Shown here one piece after another: positions 5,307 to 55,165 of a stretch of 64,000 nt of DNA. The position numbers were made by a program, and so were the translations under genes. The notes beneath the pieces are model-generated. The model worked only from the letters and a program-made list of their open reading frames with translations, was not told the origin of the DNA and ran no database searches. The DNA comes from Microgenomates group bacterium GW2011_GWC1_46_15 (lineage in GTDB: Bacteria > Patescibacteriota > Microgenomatia > UBA1400 > UBA12028), in NCBI GenBank assembly GCA_001002285.1, contig LCLX01000001.1:316895-380894 (forward strand), in the 5' to 3' direction. Numbering within the stretch: the first letter of the stretch is position 1; every line of letters begins with the position of its first letter.

Positions 5307-5310
5307 TCCA

Positions 5311-37009: not shown

Positions 37010-37142
37010 AAATAGAGTATATCACTGTACTTCTACATTTAGGAAAATTTAGAACGATTTGAATTTCCAGAGGAAAACAGTATAGATAGTAACTAGGTGT
37101 AGAGTGTGGAACATGGATAGTGTTTTTCAAAAAAAATTGCTG

Positions 37143-37148
37143 TATAAT
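37143..37148 (+). promoter_or_regulatory. Putative -10 box (TATAAT) with an upstream A-tract for the 37168 operon.
   Basis: TATAAT lies 20 nt upstream of the ATG and is preceded by AAAAAAAATTGCTG. An AAAGGAG Shine-Dalgarno is at 37156..37162. Confidence 0.3.
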
Positions 37149-37167
37149 CTTCCGAAAAGGAGACTTT

Positions 37168-37539
37168 ATGCCATCAGAATTACAACCCAAACTTACAGTT
37201 GAATCTATCTATACTATTCGCAACATCTTGATAGATAATGGAGCAGATAGAGTAGAGGTTCCTATAGCGACGATTTACAGAGAACTTTCTGCTATTACTT
37301 CTGAAATGACAGCATTGCGAATGCTTCAAGAAGTGGCAGCTTTTGCGAAGGAAGTTGAAAGAGAAAAAGCACAAGGAGTCGCTCTTGGTTCGTCGGATTT
37401 ACGAATTGCGATAGATTCTATTTTTTACGAGCAAGGAAAAAGTGATCCTACACAATATGGACTTAAGACACAAATTGAGTTAAGGGCATGCGCAAAACTG
37501 ATTTCAATGCTCACTACGCATCCAAAAATCACTGAATAA
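37168..37539 (+). CDS. Hypothetical protein.
   Basis: 123 aa with a good Shine-Dalgarno. It is the first gene after a divergent intergenic region. No recognisable domain. Confidence 0.5.
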   Translation: MPSELQPKLTVESIYTIRNILIDNGADRVEVPIATIYRELSAITSEMTALRMLQEVAAFAKEVEREKAQGVALGSSDLRIAIDSIFYEQGKSDPTQYGLKTQIELRACAKLISMLTTHPKITE

Positions 37540-37586
37540 AATTCTTCAAGTTTCCCTTTCCCCCTCTTGATTGATACAATAGGAGC

Positions 37587-38522
37587 ATGCCAGAGGTAGA
37601 GCGCGTTTCTGTTATCCTTTTGAACTATCATGCGTATCAAGACACCACCGAGTGTCTGCTTTCGATCAAAAAGGCGAGAAAACATGGTCTTGCGATCCAA
37701 ACGATTGTGGTTGATGTGCGTAATAAGGAAGATGTTGAAGATCAAGACGCGCAGAAACTTTCAAAAAACTTCCCCGAAGTTACCGTTCTTCCAAGTGAAA
37801 ATAAAGGATACACCGGGGGAAATAACGTAGGAATACAACATGCGCTTGAGCATACAAATCCTGACTATATTCTTCTGTTAAACAACGATACGCGTATTCA
37901 TCCCAATCTATTTGAAGAGTTGATAAAAACAGCGCATACGCATAAAAACCAAGGTTTTTTTGTCCCCAAGATCTACTTTGAAAAAGGGAAAGAGTTTCAC
38001 TCTGGTGACTATACCGAAGAAGAACGCGGAAAAGTGTTGTGGTATGCCGGCGGATTTGTTGACTGGAAGAACATGTACGCCTGGCACCGTGGCGTTGATG
38101 AGGTAGACCATGGGCAGTTTGATACGGAAGAAACAACGCAGTTTGCTACTGGGTGCTGCCTTTTGATTCCTGTGCAAACACTGCGCTCCGTAGGCCTCTT
38201 CAACAAAAAATACTTCTTATATCTGGAAGATTTGGAACTTTCACAGCGCCTACATAAAAAAGGTGGAAAGATTTGGTATGTTCCAACCGCGGTTGTTTGG
38301 CACAAAAACGCTGGGTCAACGGGCGGAAGCGGTTCTCAAACGCATGTATACTACTCCACAAGAAACAGGTTGCTCTTTGGGATGACATACGCACCACTCC
38401 GAGTTAAATTCGCGCTTCTTAAAGAGGCAATGGGAAAGCTTTTTCATGGAAAATCGGAGGAAAAAGAAGCAGTGCGTGATTTTTTGATCGGCAAGTTCGG
38501 AGCGCGGACACATACAATATAA
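37587..38522 (+). CDS. GT2 glycosyltransferase, WbbL-like (putative rhamnosyltransferase family).
   Basis: VSVILLNYH, the DxD region LLNNDT, and YLEDLELSQR (the ED motif typical of GT2 rhamnosyltransferases). Confidence 0.7.
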   Translation: MPEVERVSVILLNYHAYQDTTECLLSIKKARKHGLAIQTIVVDVRNKEDVEDQDAQKLSKNFPEVTVLPSENKGYTGGNNVGIQHALEHTNPDYILLLNNDTRIHPNLFEELIKTAHTHKNQGFFVPKIYFEKGKEFHSGDYTEEERGKVLWYAGGFVDWKNMYAWHRGVDEVDHGQFDTEETTQFATGCCLLIPVQTLRSVGLFNKKYFLYLEDLELSQRLHKKGGKIWYVPTAVVWHKNAGSTGGSGSQTHVYYSTRNRLLFGMTYAPLRVKFALLKEAMGKLFHGKSEEKEAVRDFLIGKFGARTHTI

Positions 38523-38532
38523 AGGAGCATCT

Positions 38533-39348
38533 ATGCCAACAATTTCTGCTGTCATTATCGCAAAAAACGAAGAAAAAATGATTGCAAACTGCCTTGATAC
38601 GCTCCAATGGTGTGATGAATGCATCGTCATTGATAATGGCTCTACGGATAGCACTCCAATGCTGGCAGAACAAGCCGGCGCACACGTTATTGAACTCAAA
38701 AACGCTGGTTTTGCCGAAGCGCGCACAAAAGGGAAAGATGAAGCAAAAAGCGATTGGATTCTATATATTGACGCTGATGAACGCGTTACTCCAAAGTTAA
38801 AATCAGAAGTACAGAGAGTGATATCGTCTCCTGGATATCAGGCATACTCAGTGCCGCGGAACAACATTCACTATGGAAAATGGATGCAGTATGGAGGATG
38901 GGAAAAAGATCGCGTTGTCCGTCTTTTTCAAAAGAAGCACCTCAGCGCATGGGAAGGGAAAGTACATGAACACGCTATTGTTGATGGTGTGACTGGAGAA
39001 CTCCGTGAGCCACTTGTGCACCTCACGCATCGGAACATGAAAGAGGGGCTTGAAAAGTCAATTGTATGGACGGACATCGAAGCGCATTTATTTCTCGCGG
39101 CGGGCCATCCAAACATGACGACACTTCGATTAATAAAAGTGACACTGTGGGAGTTTTTCAGCAGAGTTTTCAAAAAGAAAGCATATAAAGACGGAACTGA
39201 GGGGATGATTGAGGCGATGGTGCAGGCGATGAATCGTTTCTTGGTATATGAACGCGTGTGGGAGCTTCAACGGAAACCATCGTTGGATGAAACATATCAA
39301 AAGATAGAAAAGGAAATCGCATCGCTATGGCGCAAACAAAACGGATAG
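38533..39348 (+). CDS. GT2 glycosyltransferase (WaaE/KdtX-like).
   Basis: ISAVIIAKNEEKMI, VIDNGSTDST, DADERVTPKL. Confidence 0.7.
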   Translation: MPTISAVIIAKNEEKMIANCLDTLQWCDECIVIDNGSTDSTPMLAEQAGAHVIELKNAGFAEARTKGKDEAKSDWILYIDADERVTPKLKSEVQRVISSPGYQAYSVPRNNIHYGKWMQYGGWEKDRVVRLFQKKHLSAWEGKVHEHAIVDGVTGELREPLVHLTHRNMKEGLEKSIVWTDIEAHLFLAAGHPNMTTLRLIKVTLWEFFSRVFKKKAYKDGTEGMIEAMVQAMNRFLVYERVWELQRKPSLDETYQKIEKEIASLWRKQNG

Positions 39349-40430
39349 GACTGTACTCACCATACGTTCCCGAACACGCTGGAGGCGGGGAACGGTACTT
39401 TATGTCGGTTACCGAAATTCTTTCGGAGTCGCACGACGTTACGATGCTTCTCGCGCGCGGCGGAGACGAGCAAGCGGTGCGGGAAAAATATGAACAGGCG
39501 TTTCATCTCGATCTTTCGCGCGTTCACTTTAAACAAACGGCGATTGGAACACGGGCCTCTTTCTTAACCAAGGTATTGGAAACCGCACAGTACGACGTGT
39601 TGTACTATCTTACCGACGGAAGCCTCTTTTTTAGCCTGGCTAAACGCAATATCTTACATATCCAATTTCCGTTTGCGTTTGTGCAGTCAGGCCTCATAAA
39701 CAGAGTAAAGTTGTGGAACTGGCATATCTGTAACACAAACTCCGCGTTCACAAAAAAAATTATTGAGCAGTGGTGGAAAATTTCGGTTCCTTTTGTCCAC
39801 TATCCGTATGTTGATTCAGCGCTTTATGTGCCGGCAACAAAAGAACAGATTATTCTTTCTGTTGGTCGGTTTTTTTCCGGTGAAAAATCAGTCATGCACT
39901 GCAAGCGTCAAGATATCATGGTAAAGGTATTCCGCTCGATGGTTAATCATGGATTAAAAGGATGGAAACTTGTGCTGATTGGGAGCATTGACCCCGGTGA
40001 GGACAACGCGGCATACGCGGCGCGTGTAGCAACGGCTGCAAAAGGATATCCCATCAAAATTTTGCACAATGCATCGTTCGATATGCTTAAACAATACTAT
40101 GCCGTTTCATCGGTATACTGGCACGCGGCGGGTTTTAGCATTGATGAAGAAAAAGAGCCTACAAAAGTCGAACATTTTGGTATTTCTCCACTGGAAGCGA
40201 TGTCTTCGGAAGCAGTACCCGTTGTTGTTGGAAAAGGCGGATTAAAAGAAATTGTTGAACATGGTGTTTCCGGTTTTCTTTGGCAGACCGAGGAAGAACT
40301 TACGCGCAATACCGCGCAGCTGATTGAGAATCACGATATGATGGAAACAATGGGACAGAAAGCCCGTGAACGCGCCAAGTTTTTTAGCAAAGAGCAGTTC
40401 CGTAAAACACTTGAGGAAATGATAGGATGA
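39327..40430 (+). CDS. GT4 (GT-B) glycosyltransferase.
   Basis: C-terminal EHFGISPLEAM (Ex7E motif) and GGLKEIVEHG. Confidence 0.75.
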   Translation: MAQTKRIGLYSPYVPEHAGGGERYFMSVTEILSESHDVTMLLARGGDEQAVREKYEQAFHLDLSRVHFKQTAIGTRASFLTKVLETAQYDVLYYLTDGSLFFSLAKRNILHIQFPFAFVQSGLINRVKLWNWHICNTNSAFTKKIIEQWWKISVPFVHYPYVDSALYVPATKEQIILSVGRFFSGEKSVMHCKRQDIMVKVFRSMVNHGLKGWKLVLIGSIDPGEDNAAYAARVATAAKGYPIKILHNASFDMLKQYYAVSSVYWHAAGFSIDEEKEPTKVEHFGISPLEAMSSEAVPVVVGKGGLKEIVEHGVSGFLWQTEEELTRNTAQLIENHDMMETMGQKARERAKFFSKEQFRKTLEEMIG

Positions 40431-41335
40431 ACGTTTCGTTTGTCATTCCGAACTACAACGGAAAACATCTTCTGCAAAAACACCTGCCCGCGGTGCTTGC
40501 TTCTGCCCGCGGTGGTGATGAAGTTATTGTGGTGGACGATGCCTCAACTGATGGCTCTGCAGAGTTTATAAAAGCAACTTTCCCGCAGGTACGCGTTCTC
40601 GTTCAGCAAAAAAATATGCGGTTTGCTGAAGCGTGCAACGCTGGAGTTCATGCGGCAAAACATCCGCTTGTTTTTCTTTTGAATACCGATGTTTCTCCAG
40701 AAAAAGATGCGCTTTCATATCTCGTTCCTCATTTTGAGGATAAAAATGTATTTGCGGTTGGATGTTTGGAACTCGATGATACGGGAAAACAAAGCGGGAG
40801 AAGTTCCGGAAGTTTTCAACGCGGATTTTTGATTCATAAAAGAGCAGAAAATCAGAATGCGCCGCAAACGCTTTGGGCTGCGGGTGGAAGTATGATGGTA
40901 AAAAAAGAGCTGTGGGAATCACTCGGAGGGATGGATCATCTTTTCCGGCCGGCATACTATGAGGACATTGATTTGAGTTACCGCGCACAAAAACTTGGAT
41001 ACACCGTTGCTTTTGAGCCGCGCGCAAAAGTACACCATCACCATGAATCAACAAATCCATCGGCGTTAGGAAAAAACCAGATGCACATCTACGCATTTAA
41101 AAACTCTTTCTTATTTATCTGGAAAAACGTGACGGATACACAACTTCTTATTCAACATCTTCTTTGGTTGCCGTATCACTTTGTTATAACGGGATGGAGA
41201 AGTTCCGGATTTTTCGTTCTTGGATTTTTTATGGCACTGTTCCAACTACCCGAAGCGTTGCATAAACGGTGGTTGCTTCAAAAAAGATGGAAACGTACCG
41301 ATAAAGAAGTTATAAACAGGGTAAACGCTATATGA
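40427..41335 (+). CDS. GT2 glycosyltransferase, WbbL-like.
   Basis: VSFVIPNYN, VVDDASTDGS, and YYEDIDLSYR. The C-terminus has a TM segment. Confidence 0.7.
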   Translation: MNVSFVIPNYNGKHLLQKHLPAVLASARGGDEVIVVDDASTDGSAEFIKATFPQVRVLVQQKNMRFAEACNAGVHAAKHPLVFLLNTDVSPEKDALSYLVPHFEDKNVFAVGCLELDDTGKQSGRSSGSFQRGFLIHKRAENQNAPQTLWAAGGSMMVKKELWESLGGMDHLFRPAYYEDIDLSYRAQKLGYTVAFEPRAKVHHHHESTNPSALGKNQMHIYAFKNSFLFIWKNVTDTQLLIQHLLWLPYHFVITGWRSSGFFVLGFFMALFQLPEALHKRWLLQKRWKRTDKEVINRVNAI

Positions 41336-42834
41336 ACCGCAGAGATATGATGATTTTTGTGTTGATTCTCATTCTTGCAGTGTTTTTGCGTTTTTTCCAC
41401 TTAGGTAGTTTGCCAATTGGCCTCACTTGGGATGAGGCGGCGATCGGATACAGCGGATTTGGCATTATGTCGGTTCACCGCGATGAGTGGTTGAATAAAA
41501 TGCCGATCGTGTTCAAATCTTTTGGTGACTACAAGGCGGCGGTGGCAATATACGCTGATGCAATCACCACGTGGATGTTTGGTCTCGACACGTTTGGTAT
41601 CCGCTTTCCGATGGCGGTAGCGGGTGTGATAACCACCGCAACTTCGTATTGGCTGGGATTATTTCTGTTTAAAGAGAAAAAATATGCGTTTCTCCTCATG
41701 GGACTTTTGGCTGTTTCTCCGCTGAATATTCATTACTCAAGAATGGCGTTTGAATCCGGCATTGCGGTCATGCTCGTAACGATTGGGTTTACATTGTTGT
41801 TCTATGCGCAAAAAAAGACAGCACTTTATTTCCCAGCTGCTTTTTCTCTCGTTCTTTCGCTCTACGCGTATCACAGCACAAAGATTGGTGTCCCGCTTTT
41901 TCTTTTTGTGTATGTTTTGGTATTTTGGAACATCATAAAGAAACAGATTGGTATTATTGGTTTAGCAGGTTTGTTCGGTGCAGTTTTACTCTTTCCTTTA
42001 GCAAAAGAAATGATGTACGGCAACGCTGCAGCGCGGTTTGCGATGACTTCGGTTATTTCTACGCCGGCGGAACTAAAACCTTTGCCGGAAGTAGTGAGTA
42101 TTATTGGTGAAAACTATGCAAAACATTTTAATTTCTCCTTTTTACTACAAGGAAAAACGCCGATTTACCGGCACGGAAACAATGTGTTTGGAATTCTTTC
42201 GCTTGTTGAGTTTGTGTTGATGTGCGCGAGCATAATTTCATGTATGCAGAAAGAAACACGGAAAAAGTTTTGGTGGATCCCCATCTTCATTCTTGTAGCA
42301 ATATTTCCGGCCGCAATAAGTGATGATGCTCCGCACAGCAATCGTGCGCACATTATTATTCCATGGATTCAAATGCTGGCGGTTATGGGATACATCTATG
42401 TTGAAAAATTCTTTCCCAAAAAAGCTTTTTTCTTTGGAGTTGTAACACTTCTTCTCATTCAAACAGCTTGGTACGCGCGGATTTACCAGCGCGTGTATAC
42501 ATATGACAGCGCCCGTGATTTTCAATATGGATATAAAGAAGCAGTGTTGTACGCGAAGTCGCAGGAGGGCAAAGTAGACAAAGTATTGCTCACAAGCGCG
42601 TATGGTCAGCCGTATATTTATGTTCTGCTCTATAAAAAACTTACTCCAATTGAGTATCAGCAGGGGGCGCTCGCGAACTATGAAATACGTGATCTCAAAT
42701 GGGACCAGGATAAAAATAGAAAAAATGCGTTGATTATTGGAACACCTTGGGAAATTCCAGCAAACGCAGACCATATTGTAAAAGAAATTCACTATCCCGA
42801 CGGGGAAGTTGCATTTAGGATTGTCAAACAATGA
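41332..42834 (+). CDS. GT-C glycosyltransferase, PMT_2/ArnT-like. First of a tandem array of four.
   Basis: TWDEAAIGYSGFGIM...SFGDYKAA...IRFPMAVAG. Overlaps neighbouring genes by 4 nt. Confidence 0.7.
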   Translation: MNRRDMMIFVLILILAVFLRFFHLGSLPIGLTWDEAAIGYSGFGIMSVHRDEWLNKMPIVFKSFGDYKAAVAIYADAITTWMFGLDTFGIRFPMAVAGVITTATSYWLGLFLFKEKKYAFLLMGLLAVSPLNIHYSRMAFESGIAVMLVTIGFTLLFYAQKKTALYFPAAFSLVLSLYAYHSTKIGVPLFLFVYVLVFWNIIKKQIGIIGLAGLFGAVLLFPLAKEMMYGNAAARFAMTSVISTPAELKPLPEVVSIIGENYAKHFNFSFLLQGKTPIYRHGNNVFGILSLVEFVLMCASIISCMQKETRKKFWWIPIFILVAIFPAAISDDAPHSNRAHIIIPWIQMLAVMGYIYVEKFFPKKAFFFGVVTLLLIQTAWYARIYQRVYTYDSARDFQYGYKEAVLYAKSQEGKVDKVLLTSAYGQPYIYVLLYKKLTPIEYQQGALANYEIRDLKWDQDKNRKNALIIGTPWEIPANADHIVKEIHYPDGEVAFRIVKQ

Positions 42835-44441
42835 AGTACTGGAAACTCTTTTTGATATTCATTTTGCTTCTGGCAGCGTTTTTACGGCTATATAAGATAA
42901 CTTCCATTCCTCCTTCGTTGTATTGGGAAGAGACTGCGCTTGGATATGACGCGTACTCCATTATGCAAACTGGCAAAGATTATCATGGGAATATTCTGCC
43001 CATACTTGCCCTCTCATCATTTGGCGACTACAAACCCTCAGGATATTTTTACGCGATTGTTCCTTTTATGCGTGTGTTCGGTCTGAGTGAACTCGCCGTG
43101 CGCTTGCCTTCGGCGTTTGCGGGAATAGCAACGGTGTTTGTCGTGTATGCGATTGGTTCCGCGTTGTATAACAAGAAAATTGGTTTGTTTGCCGCGCTTT
43201 TTTATACGATTCAACCGTGGAGCATTCAGCTTTCGCGTGTTGGGTTTGAAACAAACCTTGCGACGTTTTTATTGGCAATGGGAGTACTTTTGTCAATAAA
43301 AGCGGAGAAAAAAACATGGTTGTACGTGGTGTCAGCTTTATTTTTCGGATTATCGGCGTATACATATCACTCGGAACGCATTGTTGCCCCATTATTCGGC
43401 CTCGTCGTAGGTGTACGTTTTCTTTTTTCATATCTACGTAGTCCAAAAAAGGGAAAACCATCACTTGGTTGGGCAGTTGCAACGCTTTTCATTGGTATCG
43501 CAATGCTTTTTCCGATCCTTAGCAACTTGAAAAATCCAATCATTGCTCACCGCGCGGAAGAAACGAGTATTTTCTCTGACCCAACTCCCGTACTTGAGAG
43601 CAACGCTTTGCGTGCTGAGGATGGAAATACTGTAGTGAGCAGAGTTCTCCATCACCGGTATGTTTTATTTGGCGGGTTGATGCTCCAGCAGTATGTAAAA
43701 AACTTTTCCCCAACATTTCTTTTTCTTACAGGAGATGAAAACAATAGACATGGAACGCACGAGTTTGGTTTGTTGTACCATGTGGAATTTTTTCTCGTTG
43801 CCGCCGGGTTATATATAGTATGCGTGCGAAGAACGTTCCGTCATATGCTACCAGTGATGTGGGTAGCATTTTCCGCGCTTCCAGTTGCGCTTACTGTAAC
43901 TTCACCGCATACGCTTCGATTTGCTTCTGCCGCGCCGGCGTTTGCGTTACTTTCCGCGCTTGGAATAGTTTTTCTTTCAGAAGTTTTTGGGAAAATATGG
44001 CGCAAAAAACTTATCTTAGGTATTCTGGCGATCCTTTGTATTGAATCTGTCGTGTATCTGCACTTCTACTTCACCCACTATCCTGTTTTATCCGCCACAG
44101 ATTGGCAGTATGGATATAAAGATCTTTTTTCATCACTCGAACAACTAAAAAAACCAAATCAGAAGGTTTTTGTCACGCGTGAGCAAGGAAGACCGTCAAT
44201 CTACTACATGTTTTATACCAAACAGGATCCGCGGTATGTTCAATCGCAGGATGCGGTTGTAAAAAAAGATCAACAAGAATTTCTGGAACTCGGTCGATAT
44301 GTATTTGTAGATAATATTCCTCCAGAAAAAGGAACACTCGTCGCGTCCTCACCTTCAAAAATGCCGAAAAACGTACAACCAATACAAACGATTTTAAATC
44401 CTGATGGATCAGTGAGCTGGGTGATTTGGGAGCAACAATGA
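42831..44441 (+). CDS. GT-C glycosyltransferase, PMT_2/ArnT-like. Second of the tandem array.
   Basis: YWEETALGYDAYSIMQTGKDYHG...SFGDYKPSGY...AVRLPSAFAG. Confidence 0.7.
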   Translation: MKYWKLFLIFILLLAAFLRLYKITSIPPSLYWEETALGYDAYSIMQTGKDYHGNILPILALSSFGDYKPSGYFYAIVPFMRVFGLSELAVRLPSAFAGIATVFVVYAIGSALYNKKIGLFAALFYTIQPWSIQLSRVGFETNLATFLLAMGVLLSIKAEKKTWLYVVSALFFGLSAYTYHSERIVAPLFGLVVGVRFLFSYLRSPKKGKPSLGWAVATLFIGIAMLFPILSNLKNPIIAHRAEETSIFSDPTPVLESNALRAEDGNTVVSRVLHHRYVLFGGLMLQQYVKNFSPTFLFLTGDENNRHGTHEFGLLYHVEFFLVAAGLYIVCVRRTFRHMLPVMWVAFSALPVALTVTSPHTLRFASAAPAFALLSALGIVFLSEVFGKIWRKKLILGILAILCIESVVYLHFYFTHYPVLSATDWQYGYKDLFSSLEQLKKPNQKVFVTREQGRPSIYYMFYTKQDPRYVQSQDAVVKKDQQEFLELGRYVFVDNIPPEKGTLVASSPSKMPKNVQPIQTILNPDGSVSWVIWEQQ

Positions 44442-46042
44442 AAAAACTACACGTACTCATATTTTGCATGATTTTGCTGATTGCTGCTGTGCTTCGATTG
44501 TACAAACTCGGAAGTATCCCGGTGAGTATGTACATTGATGAGATTGCGATTGGCGTTGATGCAAAATCTATCGCGCAAACGGGCAGGGATATGCACGGTC
44601 ATTCCTGGCTTACTCCAATGTTTTTGTCGTATGGTGACTACAAACTTCCAGTCTATATATGGATAGCCACCGCTTCGGTCAAAATATTTGGCGCTACAGA
44701 GTTCGCGGTCCGCCTGCCCTCAGCAGTTGCGGGAGTATTGACGGTTTTTCTTATCTATTTTATTTCCGTTGAGTTGTTTGAGAAAAGAAAAGACCGCATA
44801 TGGATTGGTTTGGCCTCTGCTGTGGTAACGGCGGTTCTTCCGTGGAGCGTACTTTTCTCGCGGACAGGATTTGAGGGACACGTCGGCCAAATGTTTCTCC
44901 TTCTTTCAATTCTTTTTGCCTTGTATGCAAGAAAACGGCCATGGTTTATTGTGTGTTCTGCTGTTACTGGAGCTCTCGCGGTGTATACGTACTTCAGCAT
45001 CCGGTTTGTTTTCCCAGTTGTTCTTTTGGCATCATTTATAGTATCCGCAAAGAAGTTTGAATCAAAACATATATTTCGTGGCGTTTTAGGACTTGTGGTA
45101 TTTGGCCTACTTTTAATTCCATTAGTGAGGTCTCCATATTACGCTCCAAGCAACGCCTTTCGTTTATCGGCTTCTAGCATTCTGGATAACACGCAGCGGG
45201 TGCTGTATTCCAATGTATTACGGGCGCAGGATCGTGAAGCGTGGTACTCAAGAGTACTTCATCACCGCGAACTCTACTTTTTGAAGGATTTAATCACGCA
45301 CTATGCGGCACACTTTGATCTCTCTTATCTTTTTATAAGTGGTGACGTGAATCTACGGCATAGTACGGGAAAAACAGGCATTATGTTCTTAACATTTGCT
45401 CCCCTGTTTTTTGTAGGACTCTATGTTTGCACGCGTAAAGAACAAAAAGTTGGCATATTTCTAGCGGTATGGTATTTGATTGCCCTTCTTCCCGCGTCGG
45501 TGCCAAACGAAGTTCCGCACGCATTGCGGTCAATAAACGGAGTCGGAGTTGCTGCTCTATTGTGCGGGCTAGGAGCTGTTGAACTCTATTCATTTCTTTA
45601 CAAAAAACGATTTGGGAAAGTGGTGATCGGTGTATTTGCATGTGCGATACTTTTTAACATTTTTTCATTTCTTCACGACTACACCATACATTATCCAACC
45701 CGATCAAAAAAGGCGTGGTCATACGGGAAAAAACAGATCGCACAGTTTATTGAAGAAGAAAAAACATCATACGATCATGTTATTGTCGCAACTGATGATT
45801 CAATGTATTTATGGGTGCTTTTTTATGGGAACTATGATTTTACCAAAGTTCAGCGCATGCCATTTATCGATAATAAGTTGCAAAACATCAATACGATCAA
45901 TTTCCGTAGGCTTATAGAAAGCGATAGTGAATCAAAACATACATTAACTGTCGGACTTTCTGATGAGGTATACAAAAAAGACGGATTTTATCCCATTCCA
46001 ACAGCACATTCGCAAGACTATATATACAGGAGCCAGCCATGA
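44438..46042 (+). CDS. GT-C glycosyltransferase, PMT_2/ArnT-like. Third of the tandem array.
   Basis: YIDEIAIGVDAKSIAQTGRDMHG...SYGDYKLPVY...AVRLPSAVAG. The start is an ATGA overlap (ORF-track start 44426). Confidence 0.7.
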   Translation: MKKLHVLIFCMILLIAAVLRLYKLGSIPVSMYIDEIAIGVDAKSIAQTGRDMHGHSWLTPMFLSYGDYKLPVYIWIATASVKIFGATEFAVRLPSAVAGVLTVFLIYFISVELFEKRKDRIWIGLASAVVTAVLPWSVLFSRTGFEGHVGQMFLLLSILFALYARKRPWFIVCSAVTGALAVYTYFSIRFVFPVVLLASFIVSAKKFESKHIFRGVLGLVVFGLLLIPLVRSPYYAPSNAFRLSASSILDNTQRVLYSNVLRAQDREAWYSRVLHHRELYFLKDLITHYAAHFDLSYLFISGDVNLRHSTGKTGIMFLTFAPLFFVGLYVCTRKEQKVGIFLAVWYLIALLPASVPNEVPHALRSINGVGVAALLCGLGAVELYSFLYKKRFGKVVIGVFACAILFNIFSFLHDYTIHYPTRSKKAWSYGKKQIAQFIEEEKTSYDHVIVATDDSMYLWVLFYGNYDFTKVQRMPFIDNKLQNINTINFRRLIESDSESKHTLTVGLSDEVYKKDGFYPIPTAHSQDYIYRSQP

Positions 46043-47568
46043 AGTTCACAAAAACAACATACATTCTGATCTTTTGCATCATTATTGGTCTTGTTGCGCG
46101 GGTTGCGTTGTTTCCGTCAATTCCTCCTGAATTAAATAGAGATGAGGCGGCGCTTGGATACAATGCCTACAGTATTCTAAAAACAGGAAGTGACGAGTGG
46201 GGCGTACGGTTCCCAGTAACATTCCGCTCGTTTGGCGACTACAAACTTCCTGGATATATCTATACGCTTGTCCCATTTATTGCGGCGTTCGGACTCACAC
46301 CATTGGCAGTTCGGCTTCCTTCGTTACTCGCGGGAGTTGTGCTTATTCCTCTTGCATATTTTTTTGCTGTTCGGCTCACAAAGAACAAAAACATTGGGTA
46401 TGCTACAGCATTTCTTCTCGCAATTTCTCCATGGGCAATTCATTATAGTAGAGTTGGTTTTGAAGCAAATCTTGCACTCACACTTCTTATTGGTGGAATC
46501 ATTCCATTTTTATCAAAAGAAGTCCCGTGGAAATTGTTTTTATTTTCACTCGTTTGTCTTTTTGTTTCATTTATGACGTACAATACTCCACTTATTCTTT
46601 TTCCATTCATACTTGGCGTTTTATGTATGTGGAAATTTTTGTCTTATCGTCAATCTTTTCTATTACTTCTTGTTGGAATCATTTCTTTTGCACTGATTCT
46701 TCCCGCTACACGAGGCAAGGGAACAATTACAGTGTTTTCTGATCAAAATTTAGGAGAGCTAAGAAGAGCGGGGCGCATGCAGGATAGTAGCATCATCGGA
46801 AGAATCCAATACAGCCCATTTATATTTTATCTCCCAACAGTGACGAAGAACTACCTCGCGACATTCTCACCATCATTTTTGGTCACTCAGGGAGGAAGAA
46901 ATCCATGGCATCAACCATCTGGTGTCTCACATATGACGTGGCCACTCTATGTTTTATCACTTTTGGGCATGGTTGTGCTTATGCGCGATGCGGTAAAAGG
47001 AAAAGGAGTTGTTCTAGGATTACTTCTATCGGCTCCAATTGCTTCGGCAATCACAACAGATGCGCCCCACGCCACCCGAAGCCTTTTATTTTTCTTCATG
47101 CTTGTCGTATGTGCAGGAGTTGGTCTGGAAAAAATATTTCGATACAAGAAAATACTCGGCATAGTAACGTTAGGAGCGCTTCTCACTGGATTTTTCACCT
47201 ACATGCGCACGTATCTTGTATATTTTCCTGCCCACCCACAACAAGAATGGAGTACTGGAATATCATCGGCAATCCGGCAGGCAGAGAACATGCGAAAAAA
47301 TGATGAAGTGATTACGATTGTCGGCGATACACATTACTCGTACATCTACCCATTATTTGCTTTGCGTCAAGATCCGGGGGAATTAAGAAAAACAGAAAAA
47401 ACATATGGTAAAGATGTTCTAGGTTTTACTCCGGTTCAAAGTTTTTCACACTATCGTTTTGTTGAATCATTAGACAAGGTTCCAGTAAACAGTATTGTGA
47501 TTTTTCAAAAAGACCCGCTCACATTCACTATTGCACGCACGGATAGCTATGGGAAAATAAGCCAATGA
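46039..47568 (+). CDS. GT-C glycosyltransferase, PMT_2/ArnT-like. Fourth of the tandem array.
   Basis: NRDEAALGYNAYSILKTGSDEWG...SFGDYKLPGY...AVRLPSLLAG. Confidence 0.7.
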   Translation: MKFTKTTYILIFCIIIGLVARVALFPSIPPELNRDEAALGYNAYSILKTGSDEWGVRFPVTFRSFGDYKLPGYIYTLVPFIAAFGLTPLAVRLPSLLAGVVLIPLAYFFAVRLTKNKNIGYATAFLLAISPWAIHYSRVGFEANLALTLLIGGIIPFLSKEVPWKLFLFSLVCLFVSFMTYNTPLILFPFILGVLCMWKFLSYRQSFLLLLVGIISFALILPATRGKGTITVFSDQNLGELRRAGRMQDSSIIGRIQYSPFIFYLPTVTKNYLATFSPSFLVTQGGRNPWHQPSGVSHMTWPLYVLSLLGMVVLMRDAVKGKGVVLGLLLSAPIASAITTDAPHATRSLLFFFMLVVCAGVGLEKIFRYKKILGIVTLGALLTGFFTYMRTYLVYFPAHPQQEWSTGISSAIRQAENMRKNDEVITIVGDTHYSYIYPLFALRQDPGELRKTEKTYGKDVLGFTPVQSFSHYRFVESLDKVPVNSIVIFQKDPLTFTIARTDSYGKISQ

Positions 47569-48419
47569 AACTTTCAATCGTTTTAGCGGTGTATAACGAA
47601 GAAAAAAATCTCGCAGAGTGCTTGAAGTCTATAGAACATATTGCTGATGAAATCGTCATTGTTGATGGTGGAAGTACGGATAACACTGTTGAGATCGCGC
47701 AAAAGTTTGGCGCGCGAGTTATAAAAACAACTAATCCACCAATGTTTCACATCAATAAACAAAAAGCGCTGGAAGCCGCAAAAGGCGACTGGATTCTTCA
47801 CCTTGATGCAGATGAGCGGGTAGCACCGGCGTTGGCTAAACAGATTCAGGAGGCAGTCAAGGGATATCCCATAGAAATTGTTGATGCGAAAAAACAGAAT
47901 CTTTTTATCCGCCACCAACAAAATATTGAAGCAAGAGATGGAAAAATTGGAACAGATAAAAGTGAAATCACTGCATATTTCATACCACGATTGAATTTTT
48001 TCTTAGGGGGGTATCTCAAACATGGCGGTGTATATCCAGACGGTGAGATCCGTTTGGTCAAAAAAGGGAAAGCGTACTTTCCATGTAAAAACGTGCATGA
48101 GCAGATGCATATTGATGGCAGAGTTGCGTGGCTTTCTGAAGATCTCATTCACATGGCCGATCCAACGTTCAGCAGATATCTCATGCGCGCAAACCGGTAT
48201 ACAAGCCTTACCGCGAAGGAGTTTGAAAAACAGCACATACCAAAGTTCGGCATATCAGTATTCATGTATATGTTTGTAAAGCCGTTCACCACATTTTTAT
48301 CGCTCTATTTTCGACATAAAGGATTTCTTGATGGATTCCCAGGATTTGTGTGGGCAGTGTTTTCTGGTCTTCATTTTCCACTTGCGTACATGAAATATTG
48401 GGAAAACCATGATGCATAA
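47565..48419 (+). CDS. GT2 glycosyltransferase (WaaE/KdtX-like).
   Basis: LSIVLAVYNEEKNL, VDGGSTDNT, DADERVAPAL. Confidence 0.7.
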   Translation: MKLSIVLAVYNEEKNLAECLKSIEHIADEIVIVDGGSTDNTVEIAQKFGARVIKTTNPPMFHINKQKALEAAKGDWILHLDADERVAPALAKQIQEAVKGYPIEIVDAKKQNLFIRHQQNIEARDGKIGTDKSEITAYFIPRLNFFLGGYLKHGGVYPDGEIRLVKKGKAYFPCKNVHEQMHIDGRVAWLSEDLIHMADPTFSRYLMRANRYTSLTAKEFEKQHIPKFGISVFMYMFVKPFTTFLSLYFRHKGFLDGFPGFVWAVFSGLHFPLAYMKYWENHDA

Positions 48420-48927
48420 ACTTGCCGCGCTTGTCCCATTGCTTGGATGGTTTTATTTTACTATTGGTGGATATGCGATATTTTCATGGATCACAAAAGA
48501 TAAATTTTCTTTCATGAAACGCGTATTTTTCGTAGTATTCGGCCTATACGCGACGATGCTTTCATTTCAATCATTGCGATCTGAAGTAATGTTATATAAG
48601 GAAACGCGGAAAACACTTTTTGATACGTTTTATCAGAAAATCTCATACGAAGCCGGCACATACTACGATATGTACTATCATGCGTTCCGTTTAGCAATGC
48701 CAAACGGCAAGTACGTTATACATCTAGAGGACGTCCCAACACGCGAACTGCACTACGCGCGCATGTACCTGTATCCCGACTCTGTATTTATTGTTGACCA
48801 TGTACCGGCTGTCGCGGGCAATTTTGGTATTGTGCGAGAAAGCACAAAGTCTGCGATCGTAAAACAGTCTGACACAATTTTAATATATGGGGGAAAACAG
48901 CTTATCCGTGTAAAAGGAGCACAATAA
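48409..48927 (+). CDS. Hypothetical membrane-anchored protein.
   Basis: 172 aa with two N-terminal TM helices and a soluble domain. No recognisable family. Confidence 0.45.
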   Translation: MMHKLAALVPLLGWFYFTIGGYAIFSWITKDKFSFMKRVFFVVFGLYATMLSFQSLRSEVMLYKETRKTLFDTFYQKISYEAGTYYDMYYHAFRLAMPNGKYVIHLEDVPTRELHYARMYLYPDSVFIVDHVPAVAGNFGIVRESTKSAIVKQSDTILIYGGKQLIRVKGAQ

Positions 48928-50246
48928 TGTTTGAAGTATTTTTCCCTATCGCAATCATGTGGCTGATGTATATCGGTGTTGGTGTTTTAGCGTTTCAGTT
49001 TCTTCAAACACGCGAAAAAATAAAAGTAGTATCAGAGTCTCCAGCATACATATGGAGCGTGTCATTTTTGATTGGAGCAGGCATCGTAACGCTCGGAGAG
49101 TTTGTGCTTTCATTAATAAAAGTACCGTTTTGGATTTCATTATGTGGATTTGGTGCAATCACTCTCTATAGCCTTTTTCTTTACCGCCACACACTATGTT
49201 CACCAACACGAAAACCTCAAACGATCTTTACCACTCTTTTTTGGGTCGGCACAGCAATCATGATGTTTTTCTTTTTTACACGGTCAATGTCCCGCGTTAC
49301 GTACACATGGGACTCGATCGCGTTTTGGACGCCAAAAATGTTTGCACTGTGGTCCGACCAGACCGTACATCTTGAGGGATTGCGCAACTTCAATCATCCT
49401 GAGTATCCGTTACTCCTACCATTAACGGGCGCCAACGCGTTTACCGTTGTTGGCGAGTACAACGAAGTTTCGGCAAAAGCGGTGATTTTTGGTTTTTCAC
49501 TCGCACTTTTCCTTCTTATCGGCAACGCGCTTCTCACGCAAAAATCGTCAAAACTTAAAAAAGTTTTCTGGATGGTTCTTTTTCTTTCAATATTCATTGT
49601 CCGTGAACACGTCGCGGGAGAGTATGTCGGAACGGCCGATATTTTTGTGGGAACGTATTTCGTCGCAGGAACGATTGCATTACTAAAAAAACATCGGCTT
49701 ATTGCCTTAGTTCTCTGGCTTTTTGCCGCGTGGAGCAAGAGTGAGGGACTAGTATTTGCCGGCGTTACAACGTTTTTACTTTTCCTCAGTTATCCAAGCC
49801 TTCGGAAGTGGATTGTCCTTAGTTTTGCTGCGATTGCGGTTCCGTGGCAGCTTTTCACAAAATTAAGCGGATTGGGAAGTCAGTACTTTGCGTTTGGCTC
49901 GTTGTATGCCCGGCCATGGATTGAGTACGCGGTGTACAGTGTTCACGCATTCCGCGAAGAGTTCCGCAATCTGCAAAAATGGAATCTCGTGTTCTTTTTC
50001 TTTCTCGCGCAGTCATTTGCCACAATCAAACGCATTGCACAACACAAAGAACTGCGGATTATTTACGCTGGCTTAACTGTTCAACTTCTTTCATATATGG
50101 TAATCTTCACGATAGCTCCGGAAGAGCAGGCGAGTTTTATCGCGGCAGCTATCTCGCGGTTAACGCTTCACCTTGCTCCAACGGCTCTAGTTATAACGGC
50201 GTACCTTTTTTCGCAGGAGTTTCATGCAAAACACCAAAAAACATAG
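48927..50246 (+). CDS. Polytopic membrane protein of unknown family (candidate polymerase/ligase-type).
   Basis: 439 aa with about 10-12 TM segments. It sits between GT2 genes. Confidence 0.45.
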   Translation: MFEVFFPIAIMWLMYIGVGVLAFQFLQTREKIKVVSESPAYIWSVSFLIGAGIVTLGEFVLSLIKVPFWISLCGFGAITLYSLFLYRHTLCSPTRKPQTIFTTLFWVGTAIMMFFFFTRSMSRVTYTWDSIAFWTPKMFALWSDQTVHLEGLRNFNHPEYPLLLPLTGANAFTVVGEYNEVSAKAVIFGFSLALFLLIGNALLTQKSSKLKKVFWMVLFLSIFIVREHVAGEYVGTADIFVGTYFVAGTIALLKKHRLIALVLWLFAAWSKSEGLVFAGVTTFLLFLSYPSLRKWIVLSFAAIAVPWQLFTKLSGLGSQYFAFGSLYARPWIEYAVYSVHAFREEFRNLQKWNLVFFFFLAQSFATIKRIAQHKELRIIYAGLTVQLLSYMVIFTIAPEEQASFIAAAISRLTLHLAPTALVITAYLFSQEFHAKHQKT

Positions 50247-50934
50247 CATTTCAGTCGTTCTTCCGTGTTTAAACGAGGAGGAAACACTGAGGGCGTCTAT
50301 TGCGAAGGCAAAAGAAGGTATTACAAGAGCTGGGCTTGATGGAGAAGTGATTATCGCGGATAACGGTTCACACGATCATTCGGTTGAAGTGGCAAAGAAA
50401 GCAGGCGCGCGCGTCGTTGAGGTAACACGCCGCGGGTATGGAGCCGCGCTTATGGGCGGATTTGCAGAAGCAAAAGGTGATCTCCTTGTGATGGGGGATG
50501 CCGATGATACGTATGACTTCCGTGAAATTCCGTTGTTGTATAAAAAATATCTTGAGGGATATGACTTCGTGAGTGGAAATCGACTCAAGGGGAATATTGA
50601 TCCCAAAGCGATGCCATTTATTCACCGATATATTGGCGTTCCGGCGCTTACACTTGCGCTTAACCTCTTTTTTTGGACCGGCATTTGGGATGGACACTGC
50701 GGTTTGCGCCTTTTTTCGAAAAAAGCATATTTGCTTATGCGGTTAAACTCACCAGGGATGGAGTTTGCATCCGAAATGCTGATGAAGGCTAAAAAAGCGG
50801 GGTTAAAAATGGCAGAAGTGCCCGTAAGTTATGGATCCCGCCACACAAAGTCATACTCAAAGCTCAATACATTCCGCGATGGGTTCCGTCATCTTGGTCT
50901 TATTCTCGCCTATGCGTTTGGCATAAAAACTTGA
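50224..50934 (+). CDS. GT2 polyprenyl-phosphate sugar synthase (DPM1/GtrB/ArnC-like).
   Basis: ISVVLPCLNEE, ADNGSHDHS, and GDADDTYD (DxD). Confidence 0.75.
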   Translation: MQNTKKHSISVVLPCLNEEETLRASIAKAKEGITRAGLDGEVIIADNGSHDHSVEVAKKAGARVVEVTRRGYGAALMGGFAEAKGDLLVMGDADDTYDFREIPLLYKKYLEGYDFVSGNRLKGNIDPKAMPFIHRYIGVPALTLALNLFFWTGIWDGHCGLRLFSKKAYLLMRLNSPGMEFASEMLMKAKKAGLKMAEVPVSYGSRHTKSYSKLNTFRDGFRHLGLILAYAFGIKT

Positions 50935-50952
50935 GTAAGGTATGATGGGAAC

Positions 50953-52002
50953 ATGCGAGTCCAGATTGATGTCTCTCAGCTCAATGCGATGAATGCGTAT
51001 CGTGGCGTTGGCGTGTACACCGATCTTTTGTTCCAACACTTGCGCCACCTTAAAACTTTAGACACATTTTCTTTAACAACAGAAAAAACAAAAGAACATC
51101 CCGATCTCATCCATTATCCGTATTTCGATTTGTTTTTCCACACTCTCCCTATCAAAAAGCGGGCAAAAACAGTTGTAACAATCCACGATGTTATTCCGTT
51201 GGTTTTTCCCGAGCACTATAGATCTGGTATCAAAGGATCGATCCGTTTTTTACAACAGCTTCTCGCGCTCAACACAGTTGATGCTGTGATTACTGATTCG
51301 ATGTGCTCAAAAAAAGATATTATTCAACATCTTAAGTTTCCTGCTGAAAAAGTATACGTTGTGCATTTGGCGGGAAACCCACTCCTTCATGCCACACCAA
51401 AGACTGATGTTGATGCGGTGCTAAAAAAATATAATATTCCAGAAAAATATCTCTTGTATGTCGGCGATATTAACTACAACAAAAATCTTCCAGCATTGTT
51501 GCGCGCGTTCTCAACACTTTCGCAAAATCTTCATCTTGTTATGGTCGGGCGGTCGCTGAACAATATAGAAATTCCAGAAGGCAGGTGGATTCACGATACT
51601 ATTCAGGAAAAGGGAATCGCGCAAAGAGTTCATCTCCTTACAGATATTCCAAAACATCCTGCGACTGAACTTGCTGCGTTATTTACTGGTGCATCGGCAT
51701 ATGTTCAACCCTCTCTGTATGAGGGGTTTGGCCTTTCTGTGCTTGATGCAATGCAGTGCGGAGCACTCGTCATTTCTTCAACTGGTGGGTCGCTTCCAGA
51801 GGTTGTGGGTGATGCGGCATTATTTTTTGATCCCCGAAATGAACATGAAATGGCAGATACGATGAATCAAGCCCTTTCTCTCTCTATGACAAAGAAGAAA
51901 GTTTTCCTTTCGTTGGCTCAGCACAACCTCAAACGGTTTTCTTGGGAGAAAACGGCACAGAAAACATACGCCATCTATAAAAAAGTACTTGAAACAGTAT
52001 GA
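50953..52002 (+). CDS. GT4 (GT-B) glycosyltransferase.
   Basis: SLYEGFGLSVLDAM (Ex7E) and GGSLPEVVGDAALFFDP. Confidence 0.75.
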   Translation: MRVQIDVSQLNAMNAYRGVGVYTDLLFQHLRHLKTLDTFSLTTEKTKEHPDLIHYPYFDLFFHTLPIKKRAKTVVTIHDVIPLVFPEHYRSGIKGSIRFLQQLLALNTVDAVITDSMCSKKDIIQHLKFPAEKVYVVHLAGNPLLHATPKTDVDAVLKKYNIPEKYLLYVGDINYNKNLPALLRAFSTLSQNLHLVMVGRSLNNIEIPEGRWIHDTIQEKGIAQRVHLLTDIPKHPATELAALFTGASAYVQPSLYEGFGLSVLDAMQCGALVISSTGGSLPEVVGDAALFFDPRNEHEMADTMNQALSLSMTKKKVFLSLAQHNLKRFSWEKTAQKTYAIYKKVLETV

Positions 52003-54749: not shown

Positions 54750-54751
54750 CA

Positions 54752-55138: not shown

Positions 55139-55165
55139 TGGTTCAGTATACGATATACTATGCAC

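Follow-up and report, generated by a model that had tools for sequence, protein, structure and literature searches.

An old, ordered array of GT-C glycosyltransferase paralogs in a probable surface-glycan operon of a Microgenomates-group bacterium

The source genome is a metagenome-assembled genome of the Microgenomates group ("Pacebacteria"), representing a groundwater bacterium of the Candidate Phyla Radiation (CPR) with a tiny genome. The features discussed here are collected in Table 1, and "the window" denotes the whole 64-kb stretch of DNA that was analyzed. As a preliminary description of this DNA had stated, four consecutive plus-strand genes (paralogs A-D) of 500-536 aa overlap one another by 4 nt. 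Every junction reads ATGA, including those with the GT2 genes immediately upstream and downstream of the array. For paralog C, the mechanical open reading frame begins at a TTG at position 44426, and public records carry the 534-aa form with the ATG start. The fifth paralog of that description, E, is likewise present as an open reading frame, on the opposite strand approximately 12 kb upstream of the array. All members of the five-paralog set therein proposed do exist, but they constitute only one clade, with at least eight further GT-C-type genes in the window (at least 13 in total, plus a weakly supported 14th).

Table 1. Positions of the GT-C paralogs, their operon and associated glycan genes in the window
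Feature	Positions	Strand	Basis or remark
GT2 fused to GtrA-type domain	12707-13969	+	Pfam Glycos_transf_2 and GtrA_DPMS_TM
PTPS_related GT-C	19784-21436	+	Pfam
Wzx/MurJ-superfamily flippase (Polysacc_synt_3/MurJ-type)	21420-22871	+	Pfam
Paralog E, GT-C glycosyltransferase, 565 aa	27765-29462	-	blastp to D and B; sister of D
ALG3/PIG-M/PimE-like GT-C, 419 aa	29504-30763	+	without Pfam family
GT2	30760-31650	+	
AglJ-like GT2	31620-32342	+	
GT2	37587-38522	+	Pfam; operon head
GT2	38533-39348	+	Pfam; operon head
GT4	39327-40430	+	Pfam; operon head
GT2	40427-41335	+	Pfam; ATGA overlap with A
Paralog A, GT-C glycosyltransferase, 500 aa	41332-42834	+	ORF; Pfam PMT; blastp; ortholog clade
Paralog B, GT-C glycosyltransferase, 536 aa	42831-44441	+	first-loop motif E-E, not D-E
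Paralog C, GT-C glycosyltransferase, 534 aa from ATG	44438-46042	+	Pfam PMT_2; ATGA overlap with B
Paralog D, GT-C glycosyltransferase, 509 aa	46039-47568	+	Pfam PMT; blastp; ortholog clade
GT2	47565-48419	+	Pfam Glycos_transf_2, 87 bits; directly after D, ATGA overlap
172-aa protein and 439-aa polytopic membrane protein	48409-50246	+	lineage-specific operon insert
GT2, 236 aa, candidate donor synthase	50224-50934	+	resembles lipid-phosphate-hexose synthases
GT4	50953-52002	+	Pfam
916-aa fusion of two GT-C modules (PTPS_related and PMT_2)	ends 54749	+	Pfam; last operon gene
NAD-dependent sugar-nucleotide epimerase/dehydratase	55160-56065	+	Pfam Epimerase, 232 bits

The array lies within a 14-gene operon (37587-54749) with intergenic gaps of -23 to +18 nt, which is followed by a gap of 410 nt; across the four head genes up to A, the gaps are +10, -22, -4 and -4 nt. 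In a comparison set of 81 related CPR loci, these four cytoplasmic glycosyltransferase genes (GT2, GT2, GT4, GT2) are found upstream of A in the same order in most cases, and D adjoins the downstream GT2 in 31. The 172-aa and 439-aa proteins had no Pfam or NCBIfam match, and no related loci other than the three closest carry them; the two modules of the 916-aa fusion are separate genes in most of the set. The epimerase/dehydratase beyond the operon is a conserved member of the cluster, with counterparts (approximately 60% identity) at the corresponding place of many related loci. Two loci (L005 and L006) are syntenic with the whole operon at a protein identity of approximately 40-55%.

The relatedness of the five paralogs is far above chance, with pairwise blastp E-values from 1e-22 to 5e-77 (A vs B, 6e-58; D vs B, 2.5e-54; D vs E, 4e-49; E vs B, 2e-36). 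Their identity had been put at 40-50%, an overestimate, as the measured values are 24-34% by blastp and 23-31% to A in a multiple alignment of all five. The four shared motifs previously described were recovered with small deviations. The first loop, given as W/YxDE-A-xGY, reads WDEAAIGY in A, WEETALGY in B, IDEIAIGV in C and RDEAALGY in D and E; SFGDYK becomes SYGDYK in C and SFGDQK in E; AVRLPSxxAG becomes GIRFPMAVAG in A; and the C-terminal (Y)IYxLFY motif reads, from A to E, YIYVLLY, SIYYMFY, YLWVLFY, YIYPLFA and YIWYLFE. Pfam PMT_2 (PF13231, gathering cut-off 26.1 bits) matches B with 44.5 bits and C with 51.7 bits, A and D match only Pfam PMT (PF02366; cut-off 22.7 bits), with 23.8 and 24.8 bits, a model that C also passes marginally, and E has no Pfam match. 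Orthologs of A, B and D are labeled 'RgtA/B/C/D-like domain-containing protein' in UniProt, and relatives carry the NCBI label 'glycosyltransferase family 39 protein'.

In a neighbor-joining tree with bootstrap, the paralogs fall into five separate ortholog clades with support of 90-100 (A, 90, with 26 sequences; C, 100; D, 100; E, 96). D and E are sisters (bootstrap 80), and A-E group together, apart from the remaining PMT_2 genes in the window, with a bootstrap of 100. The genes A, B, C and D occur in this order in 40 of the 81 related loci, strictly contiguously in 21, and the order recurs in Pacebacteria, Woesebacteria, Beckwithbacteria and other Microgenomates-group genomes; homologs of E in other genomes are located beside or within the same cluster. 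Since many related genomes carry an ortholog of each copy, arranged in the order A-B-C-D, the duplications are old. The earlier view of an old expansion kept in one operon is thereby upheld, on firmer grounds than first given, and the genes of this operon overlap tightly.

The predicted structure of paralog B (pLDDT 90.6, pTM 0.91) has the GT-C fold with a polytopic membrane core, and is about equally near to ALG12, Pmt4, ArnT and STT3. The top Foldseek matches were STT3, AglB and PglB. Fold neighbors give no basis for telling single-sugar transferases (ALG12, ArnT, Pmt4) apart from oligosaccharyltransferases that act en bloc (STT3, AglB, PglB). The acidic [D/E]-E pair expected of the GT-C superfamily directly follows the first membrane helix, in what would be the first extracytoplasmic loop, and its E is invariant in every paralog and throughout the five ortholog clades. 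Also kept in every clade (B numbering) are D50, D66, K68, R91, E140, H307, H360 and R363, with the A clade retaining D-E, D, GD.K, R, E, H and PH..R, while positions 31-32, 241 and 301-306 are clade-specific. With the acidic pair and these other core residues conserved in five clades, no paralog looks like a dead enzyme, and the copies are neither near-identical nor pseudogenes, the two findings that had been named as fatal to the original proposal. Divergence among the proteins is greatest in the predicted extracytoplasmic C-terminal domain, with 14-22% identity (34% between A and B) compared with 24-37% in the membrane core.

The label 'PMT_2/ArnT-like' first given to these genes stands at the superfamily level only. 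ArnT (GT83, 5ezm/5f15) was the sole solved protein found by sequence, at E=0.0086 over residues 71-226 of B (156 residues), and resembles the paralogs in its length of approximately 540 aa and in having a membrane core with a small outside C-terminal domain; it differs in that identity is 12% and ALG12, Pmt4 and STT3B are equally near in structure. The ArnT equivalog model (NCBIfam NF009784) gave 32.1 bits for C against a cut-off of 567 and no match for A, B, D or E. The GT39 PMTs (Pmt1-Pmt2, Pmt4) share the D-E motif of the first loop but are 11-14% identical, and beyond the marginal PF02366 matches no MIR or PMT_4TMC match appeared even at E<=10. No STT3/PglB/AglB signature is seen either: the WWDYG motif is absent (the nearest sequences being DWQYGY for B and DFQYGY for A), the TIGR04154 model gives 16-21 bits where the cut-off is 450, and Pfam STT3 matched none of the window proteins. 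Neither the large size nor the C-terminal carbohydrate-binding domain of Emb/Aft-type arabinosyltransferases is seen, and A-E gave no Pfam Emb or AftD match, the models concerned being Arabinose_trans and GT-C_AftD.

Genes resembling lipid-phosphate-sugar synthases are located in and near the operon, and flippase-type genes elsewhere in the window. The 236-aa GT2 at 50224 is 77-78% identical in L005 and L006. Among solved proteins it is nearest to the Pyrococcus dolichol-phosphate-mannose synthase 5mlz (E=2e-17) and next to ArnC; its NCBIfam matches, to AglJ with 110 bits and to dolichyl-phosphate hexose transferase with 84 bits, do not reach the equivalog cut-offs. Together with the GT2 at 31620 (AglJ, 110-136 bits for the two) it is nearest to lipid-phosphate-hexose synthases, although the synthase-like GT2s remain far under every NCBIfam equivalog cut-off. 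The GT2-GtrA fusion at 12707, with NCBIfam ArnC and PgfS-like matches below cut-off, is a second candidate synthase and carries a flippase-type domain of its own. Flippase-type genes are represented by both this GtrA-type domain and the Wzx-like gene at 21420; a Wzx homolog stands at the cluster head in 35 of the 81 loci, and in many of them the PTPS_related-wzx pair is located ahead of the GT2 genes and A-D. The first 13 kb of the window encode an LCP ligase, a polyprenyl synthetase, dTDP-rhamnose genes, a UDP-glucose dehydrogenase and a GDP-mannose dehydratase. Among window open reading frames of at least 150 aa, no initiating phosphoglycosyltransferase of the WecA/MraY or WbaP type was found, so that the lipid-linked acceptor assumed below has no identified start in the window.

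A-E are probably five catalytically competent, non-redundant membrane glycosyltransferases of GT-C fold and PMT_2 family, and the operon, common to many relatives, most likely builds a cell-surface sugar polymer. In the scheme we favor, the cytoplasmic GT2 and GT4 enzymes of the operon would assemble a glycan on a polyprenyl carrier, which would then cross the membrane via the Wzx-type flippase, and small GT2s resembling dolichol-phosphate-mannose synthase, AglJ and ArnC would load polyprenyl phosphate with single sugars that are also flipped. On the outer face, each paralog would take one sugar from the lipid donor and add it to the growing envelope glycan at a position specific to that paralog, with catalysis by the acidic pair of the first outside loop and the acceptor chosen by the divergent C-terminal domain. 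We regard this scheme as a whole as moderately likely. Transfer dependent on lipid-phosphate sugars, with distinct specificities, is a reasonable reading of the GT-C fold of B, the synthase-like GT2s in and near the operon and the strong divergence of the C-terminal domains; the membrane topology, donors of the lipid-monophosphate-sugar type, the assignment of a single step to each paralog, the order of action and the choice of a wall or surface polysaccharide over a protein as acceptor are all inferences. A four-step scheme would not be universal, as some lineages retain A-B only and others carry 6-8 tandem B-like copies (L081, L083, L087).

Several known systems follow a comparable logic. 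Rhamnose-rich wall polysaccharide loci combine rhamnose genes with an LCP ligase, as does the window, and to our knowledge multi-component transmembrane systems pair one GT-C with one synthase, in contrast to the four to five paralogous GT-Cs in series and the at least 13 GT-C genes per 64 kb found here. In these systems, an established scheme for Gram-positive wall polymers, a GT-A enzyme makes a C55-P-sugar, a GtrA- or Wzx-type flippase carries it across the membrane, and a GT-C transfers the sugar to the wall polymer on the outside (PMC8035078). CsbB/GtcA/YfhO, GtlA/GtlB, GacI-J-K-L and lactococcal Csd share this logic. The window encodes candidates for each of the three components; no YfhO-type domain was detected in it. 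The eukaryotic dolichol pathway, with its luminal ALG mannosyl- and glucosyltransferases, Dol-P-Man synthase and a candidate flippase of the Wzx superfamily, and the archaeal Agl pathways likewise proceed by cytoplasmic assembly, flipping and outside elaboration by several GT-Cs, and the 236-aa GT2 has its nearest solved relative and its best NCBIfam match among archaeal enzymes of this kind; the similarity of the paralogs is however of fold only, at 9-14% identity, and they show no oligosaccharyltransferase signature. RgtA, RgtB, RgtC and RgtD are galacturonosyltransferases whose lipid-phosphate donor is produced by an ArnC-like GT2. They give the PMT_2 domain its InterPro/UniProt label and, as is proposed here for A-E, are several ArnT-like GT-C paralogs of one organism that each add a sugar to a different acceptor position; the UDP-glucose dehydrogenase and epimerases of the window could in principle supply uronic-acid donors. 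They differ in acting on LPS core and lipid A, whereas the four genes here form a fixed overlapping array in a Wzx-type polysaccharide operon; we know of no CPR bacterium that makes LPS. In Rhizobium leguminosarum, RgtA and RgtB add GalA to the outer Kdo (PMC4402001). The mycobacterial embC-embA-embB genes are also tandem GT-C paralogs, whose products elongate a wall polysaccharide on the outer side of the membrane and draw on a lipid-phosphate-sugar donor. They differ in that the solved chains measure approximately 1,050-1,090 aa, and Emb proteins carry large carbohydrate-binding domains.

Emb proteins form heterodimers, and the EmbA-EmbB complex (7bvf) and the yeast Pmt1-Pmt2 complex are among the solved GT-C relatives returned by the fold search with B. 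The paralogs might similarly work as fixed hetero-oligomers (e.g., A with B and C with D), with the gene overlaps serving equal partner amounts, a reading that is compatible with stepwise envelope glycosylation and would alter how the array works. A and B are adjacent in 52 of the 81 loci and C and D in 40, overlapping in 37 of these 40 in longest-ORF calls, a method that exaggerates overlap; inserted genes often split the B/C junction (gap above 30 nt in 12 of 38), the retention of the A-B pair alone in some lineages fits a unit of two, and the C-terminal domains of A and B are unusually alike. Set against this, partial distance-matrix correlations over 21 genomes, controlled for five cytoplasmic glycosyltransferases of the same cluster, are low and similar for all pairs (0.13-0.26), with A-B the lowest, and the full catalytic-type residue set in every clade leaves no subunit looking purely structural. 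We consider fixed hetero-oligomers rather unlikely.

Instead of a wall polymer, the acceptor might be a surface protein, such as a pilin, an S-layer protein or a Ser/Thr-rich region, glycosylated sugar by sugar in the manner of PMT or streptococcal Pgf/GtrB, or by one paralog acting as an oligosaccharyltransferase. The marginal Pfam PMT matches of A, C and D and the PMT-type D-E motif point in this direction, as do the top Foldseek matches, and the AglJ-like GT2s and absent phosphoglycosyltransferase recall archaeal Agl pathways. Right behind its last membrane helix, the B clade conserves D-W-Q-Y-G-Y-K, which resembles WWDYG; that motif itself is missing, however, the STT3 models score far below cut-off, a profile of the B C-terminal domain matched no solved protein even at E<=10, and the MIR and PMT_4TMC domains of PMTs are absent. 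With no candidate target protein encoded in the window, and an LCP wall-polymer ligase and rhamnose genes that favor a wall polysaccharide, a protein acceptor appears improbable.

It is highly improbable that A-D, instead of being fixed steps of one pathway, are fast-turnover, interchangeable surface-decoration enzymes for antigenic or phage-receptor variation in the manner of serotype-converting Gtr modules, since, although the family is prone to duplication (the tandem B-like copies noted above, and 4-5 in Chisholmbacteria), its GT-C genes have evolved faster than the cytoplasmic glycosyltransferases of the same cluster (mean distance 1.13-1.32 vs 0.64-0.96) and additional GT-C genes are inserted at varying positions, the well-supported A-D ortholog clades in the same order across Microgenomates-group genomes are the opposite of rapid turnover.

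Open reading frame (ORF) calls recovered the four consecutive overlapping GT-C glycosyltransferase genes (A, B, C and D) and the fifth copy (E) elsewhere in the window that the preliminary description had reported. An ATGA overlap of 4 nt occurs at every A-D junction and also joins the array to the flanking GT2 genes, which encode cytoplasmic-type glycosyltransferases, on both sides. Pairwise blastp comparison of A-E gave E-values of 1e-22 to 5e-77, which places their paralogy beyond chance, at an identity of 24-34% rather than the 40-50% that had been claimed. This divergence, the intact ORFs and the conserved catalytic-type residues rule out both recent, near-identical duplicates and pseudogenes, the two outcomes that would have told against the array; it is real, and its conservation is better than had been assumed. 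In NCBI the five proteins are annotated as “hypothetical protein [Candidatus Pacebacteria bacterium]”, and orthologs of A, B and D carry the UniProt name [quoted passage not shown]. An identical B protein is encoded on contig DNDA01000010.1 (111 kb) of GCA_003484165.1 and on several groundwater metagenome contigs. These matches place the organism in the Microgenomates group of the Candidate Phyla Radiation (CPR).

Features discussed in the text, in window coordinates (a single number is the position by which a gene is designated)
Feature	Coordinates	Strand	Length or remark
Polyprenyl synthetase	559-1656	-	
LCP wall-polymer ligase	2205-3224		
RmlB/C/D-type genes	3630-6195		
UDP-glucose/GDP-mannose dehydrogenase	7553-10285	+	910 aa
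GT2 with fused GtrA domain	12707-13969		
PMT_2 gene, one of three related	13936		
AadA-like nucleotidyltransferase	17474-18262	-	
Further PMT_2 gene	18287		
PTPS_related GT-C	19784		
Wzx/MurJ-type flippase	21420-22871		
Polytopic membrane protein	22874-24919	+	681 aa
Weak GT-C candidate	24928		88% to B profile
PTPS_related GT-C	25994		
Paralog E	27765-29462	-	565 aa
ALG3-like GT-C	29504-30763		419 aa
AglJ-like GT2	31620-32342		
GT-C related to PTPS_related genes	32873		99.3%
14-gene run	37587-54749	+	
Paralog A	41332-42834	+	500 aa
Paralog B	42831-44441	+	536 aa
D-W-Q-Y-G-Y-K motif of B	44100-44120		residues 424-430
Paralog C	44438-46042	+	534 aa from ATG; mechanical ORF start is TTG at 44426
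Paralog D	46039-47568	+	509 aa
172-aa and 439-aa proteins	48409-50246	+	439-aa gene designated 48927
AglJ-like GT2	50224-50934		236 aa
PTPS_related/PMT_2 GT-C fusion	51999-54749	+	916 aa; PTPS_related in N-terminal half
PMT_2 gene, one of three related	56521		
PMT_2 gene, one of three related	58027	-	

The five paralogs belong to the GT-C superfamily, and sequence family models place them at that level only. The Pfam PMT_2 cut-off (26.1 bits) is passed by two of the five copies, B at 44.5 and C at 51.7 bits; A (23.8) and D (24.8) barely reach that of Pfam PMT (22.7 bits), and E has no Pfam match. None of the NCBIfam models came near its cut-off on A-E; the ArnT model, which matched C alone, scored 32 bits where 567 are required. 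ArnT, PMT proper, STT3-type oligosaccharyltransferase and Emb/Aft were each tested as possible families, and membership held for none of them. A profile built from 34 B orthologs gave a single sequence match to solved proteins, ArnT 5ezm (E=0.0086), and the AlphaFold2 model of B built on the same alignment is confident (pLDDT 90.6, pTM 0.91). In this model, a short N-terminus leads into the first membrane helix; the outside loop after it bears the acidic pair, the multi-helix core in the membrane ends near residue 420, and the C-terminal domain is alpha/beta. The family is large, as the profile of the five paralogs retrieved 5,616 representatives at E<=1e-30 (50%-identity clusters, among 1.84 billion), whose members are mostly annotated as “hypothetical” or generic “family 39”.

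To place the duplications in time, related loci were collected from one genome per species, which yielded 80 loci, nearly all in Patescibacteria; their ORFs were labelled via the best match to window proteins, and 81 non-redundant loci were counted. Orthologs in many CPR lineages are about 40-54% identical to B, and so closer to it than any paralog within the window. In a neighbour-joining tree of 144 sequences (100 bootstraps), whose labels are partly circular because they derive from best hits but whose bootstraps and positional agreement are independent of them, each paralog formed its own clade: A (26 sequences, bootstrap 90), B (26, 96), C (25, 100), D (23, 100) and E (6, 96). D and E grouped together (32 sequences, bootstrap 80), and all five were separated from the other PMT_2 genes of the window (140 sequences, bootstrap 100). 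The order A..B..C..D is found in 40 of the 81 loci and is strictly contiguous in 21. A-B adjacency (52/81) and C-D adjacency (40/81), with a B/C junction that is often broken, are suggestive of A-B and C-D acting as fixed heterodimers, but mirror-tree partial correlations were 0.13-0.26 with no A-D pair distinct, and we consider such pairing unlikely. Woesebacteria-type loci (L010-L014) retain A-B only. Separately, 6-8 tandem B-like GT-C genes replace the A-B-C-D set in some Patescibacteria (L081, L083 and L087), and Chisholmbacteria carry 4-5; L071/L072 also belong with these loci. Many of the metagenome-assembled records with Patescibacteria gene content and best matches (L012-L014, L018-L021 and others) are titled “uncultured Pseudomonadales” or “Gammaproteobacteria”, which look like placeholder or wrong taxonomy.

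A-D reside within a run of 14 genes on one strand, with intergenic gaps of -23 to +18 nt and spacers of 577 nt before and 410 nt after it. The gene order is GT2, GT2, GT4, GT2, A, B, C, D, GT2, followed by the 172-aa protein, the 439-aa membrane protein, the 236-aa GT2, a GT4 and the 916-aa fusion, and GGAG Shine-Dalgarno-like motifs precede several starts from inside the preceding gene. Scans of positions 36500-56400 yielded fewer promoter-like sites than shuffled sequence (21 versus 38.5) and terminator-like sites at chance level (19 versus 20.5); as these were uninformative, the operon limits were set from gene spacing. Gene-for-gene synteny of the operon extends to L005 (Pacebacteria) and L006. 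Related genomes hold one compact cluster, [PTPS-related GT-C]-Wzx-GT2-[AglJ-like GT2]-GT2-GT2-GT4-GT2-A-B-C-D-GT2-GT4-GT-C-GT-C-epimerase, with the Wzx homolog at its head in 35 of 81 loci, and in the window this cluster is dispersed by insertions. The two modules of the 916-aa protein correspond to adjacent genes (~550 and 395 aa) in most related loci and are also fused in L019. The 172-aa and 439-aa proteins form an operon insert common to the closest relatives only, and these and the 681-aa protein lack matches to Pfam, NCBIfam and the GT-C profiles. No signal was found by hhalign between the 439-aa or 681-aa protein and the GT-C profiles. Scanning 24 orthologs of the unassigned membrane proteins at 29504, 48927 and 22874 with Pfam returned zero matches; structural follow-up covered the first of the three.

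The motifs listed in the preliminary description were found in A-E with small deviations in A, B, C and E: the first-loop pair of B is E-E rather than D-E, A reads GIRFPMAVAG, C reads SYGDYK and E reads SFGDQK. Across the B clade the pair is E-E in 27 members and D-E in 15. Alignment of the five copies leaves 33 invariant columns; among them (A numbering) are the E at the second place of the first-loop pair, D51, G65-D66, K68, R91, R137, E141, H335 and R338. Each ortholog clade conserves the [D/E]-E pair, D50, D66, K68, R91, E140, H307, H360 and R363 (B numbering), so no clade resembles a dead enzyme. Clade-specific positions adjoin these residues. At 31-32, clade A has T/S-W, clades B and C share Y-W, and D and E share N-R; position 241 is R in A-C but Q in D and K in E; over 301-306 the B and C clades read G-D-x-N-x-R, A reads x-T-x-T-x-R and D reads G-G-x-H-x-W. 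The most divergent segment is the ~115-150 aa after the last membrane helix, where paralogs are 14-22% identical (A-B 34%), compared to 24-37% in the membrane core. A conserved core with a divergent C-terminal part would fit the same chemistry performed at differing acceptor sites.

The best-supported reading, by analogy, is that the locus encodes a scaled-up version of the multi-component transmembrane glycosylation established in Gram-positive bacteria for wall polymers (PMC8035078). A lipid-linked glycan would be built by cytoplasmic GT2 and GT4 enzymes and flipped by a Wzx-type protein, small GT2s would produce polyprenyl-phosphate-sugars, and outside the membrane A, B, C and D would each attach a sugar, every paralog at its own position, after which an LCP ligase may link the product to peptidoglycan. 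The nearest functional precedent is Rhizobium RgtA/B/C/D, in which several ArnT-like paralogs act on different acceptor positions (PMC4402001). Both AglJ-like GT2s are nearest to Pyrococcus Dol-P-Man synthase (E=2e-17 for the 236-aa protein), ArnC and AglJ. The first 13 kb also holds UDP-glucose dehydrogenase, UXS-like and GDP-mannose dehydratase genes beside the polyprenyl synthetase, LCP and Rml-type genes.

Less probable still than fixed pairing is the idea that the acceptor is protein, perhaps with one paralog resembling an oligosaccharyltransferase. Foldseek ranks favor such a paralog, as does the D-W-Q-Y-G-Y-K motif conserved in the B clade directly after the last membrane helix (DFQYGYK in A), which is reminiscent of the oligosaccharyltransferase WWDYG; the oligosaccharyltransferase idea nevertheless failed all available sequence tests. 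At E<=10, Pfam gave no STT3 C-terminal core match to window proteins and the B C-terminal domain profile matched none of the solved structures, leaving the motif without support at profile level. A more elaborate version, to which we give little credence, regards the Microgenomates-group cluster as a bacterial equivalent of the dolichol-type pathway of archaea and eukaryotes, with one A-D paralog moving the glycan en bloc to a surface protein. An AglJ-like GT2 would start the glycan on polyprenyl monophosphate, to be set beside the result that window ORFs of >=150 aa revealed no phosphoglycosyltransferase of the initiating MraY/WecA or WbaP type; a Wzx-type protein would flip it, ALG3-like and ALG12-like GT-Cs would elaborate it outside, and the W/F-Q-Y-G-Y of the A/B clades would sit where oligosaccharyltransferases have WWDYG. 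If true, one of A-D would be a new kind of oligosaccharyltransferase. That the array is a variable decoration set is very improbable.

CPR/Patescibacteria combine very small genomes with, to current knowledge, a life attached to other cells, which makes the cell surface central to their biology; very little is known of the chemistry of that surface. Essentially the entire 64-kb window is given to envelope-glycan synthesis, with more than 30 glycan-related genes and, by profile-profile comparison and Pfam, at least 13 GT-C genes (14 with the weak candidate). A search of the literature on CPR/Patescibacteria/Parcubacteria glycosyltransferases and envelopes yielded no description of the array or cluster. 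The A-E enzymes are of a well-known kind, and none of the features found contradicts current understanding. The fixed A-B-C-D array in a GT2/GT4 operon is common to many Microgenomates-group lineages, and this conservation gives glycomics, heterologous reconstitution and structural studies a concrete target. Amid the glycan genes, an AadA-like nucleotidyltransferase (AadA_C and NTP_transf_2) lies on the opposite strand. The 910-aa dehydrogenase (host domains 3-264 and 788-889) is split by an intein (Intein_splicing 297-734) with a LAGLIDADG homing endonuclease (LAGLIDADG_3 586-657).
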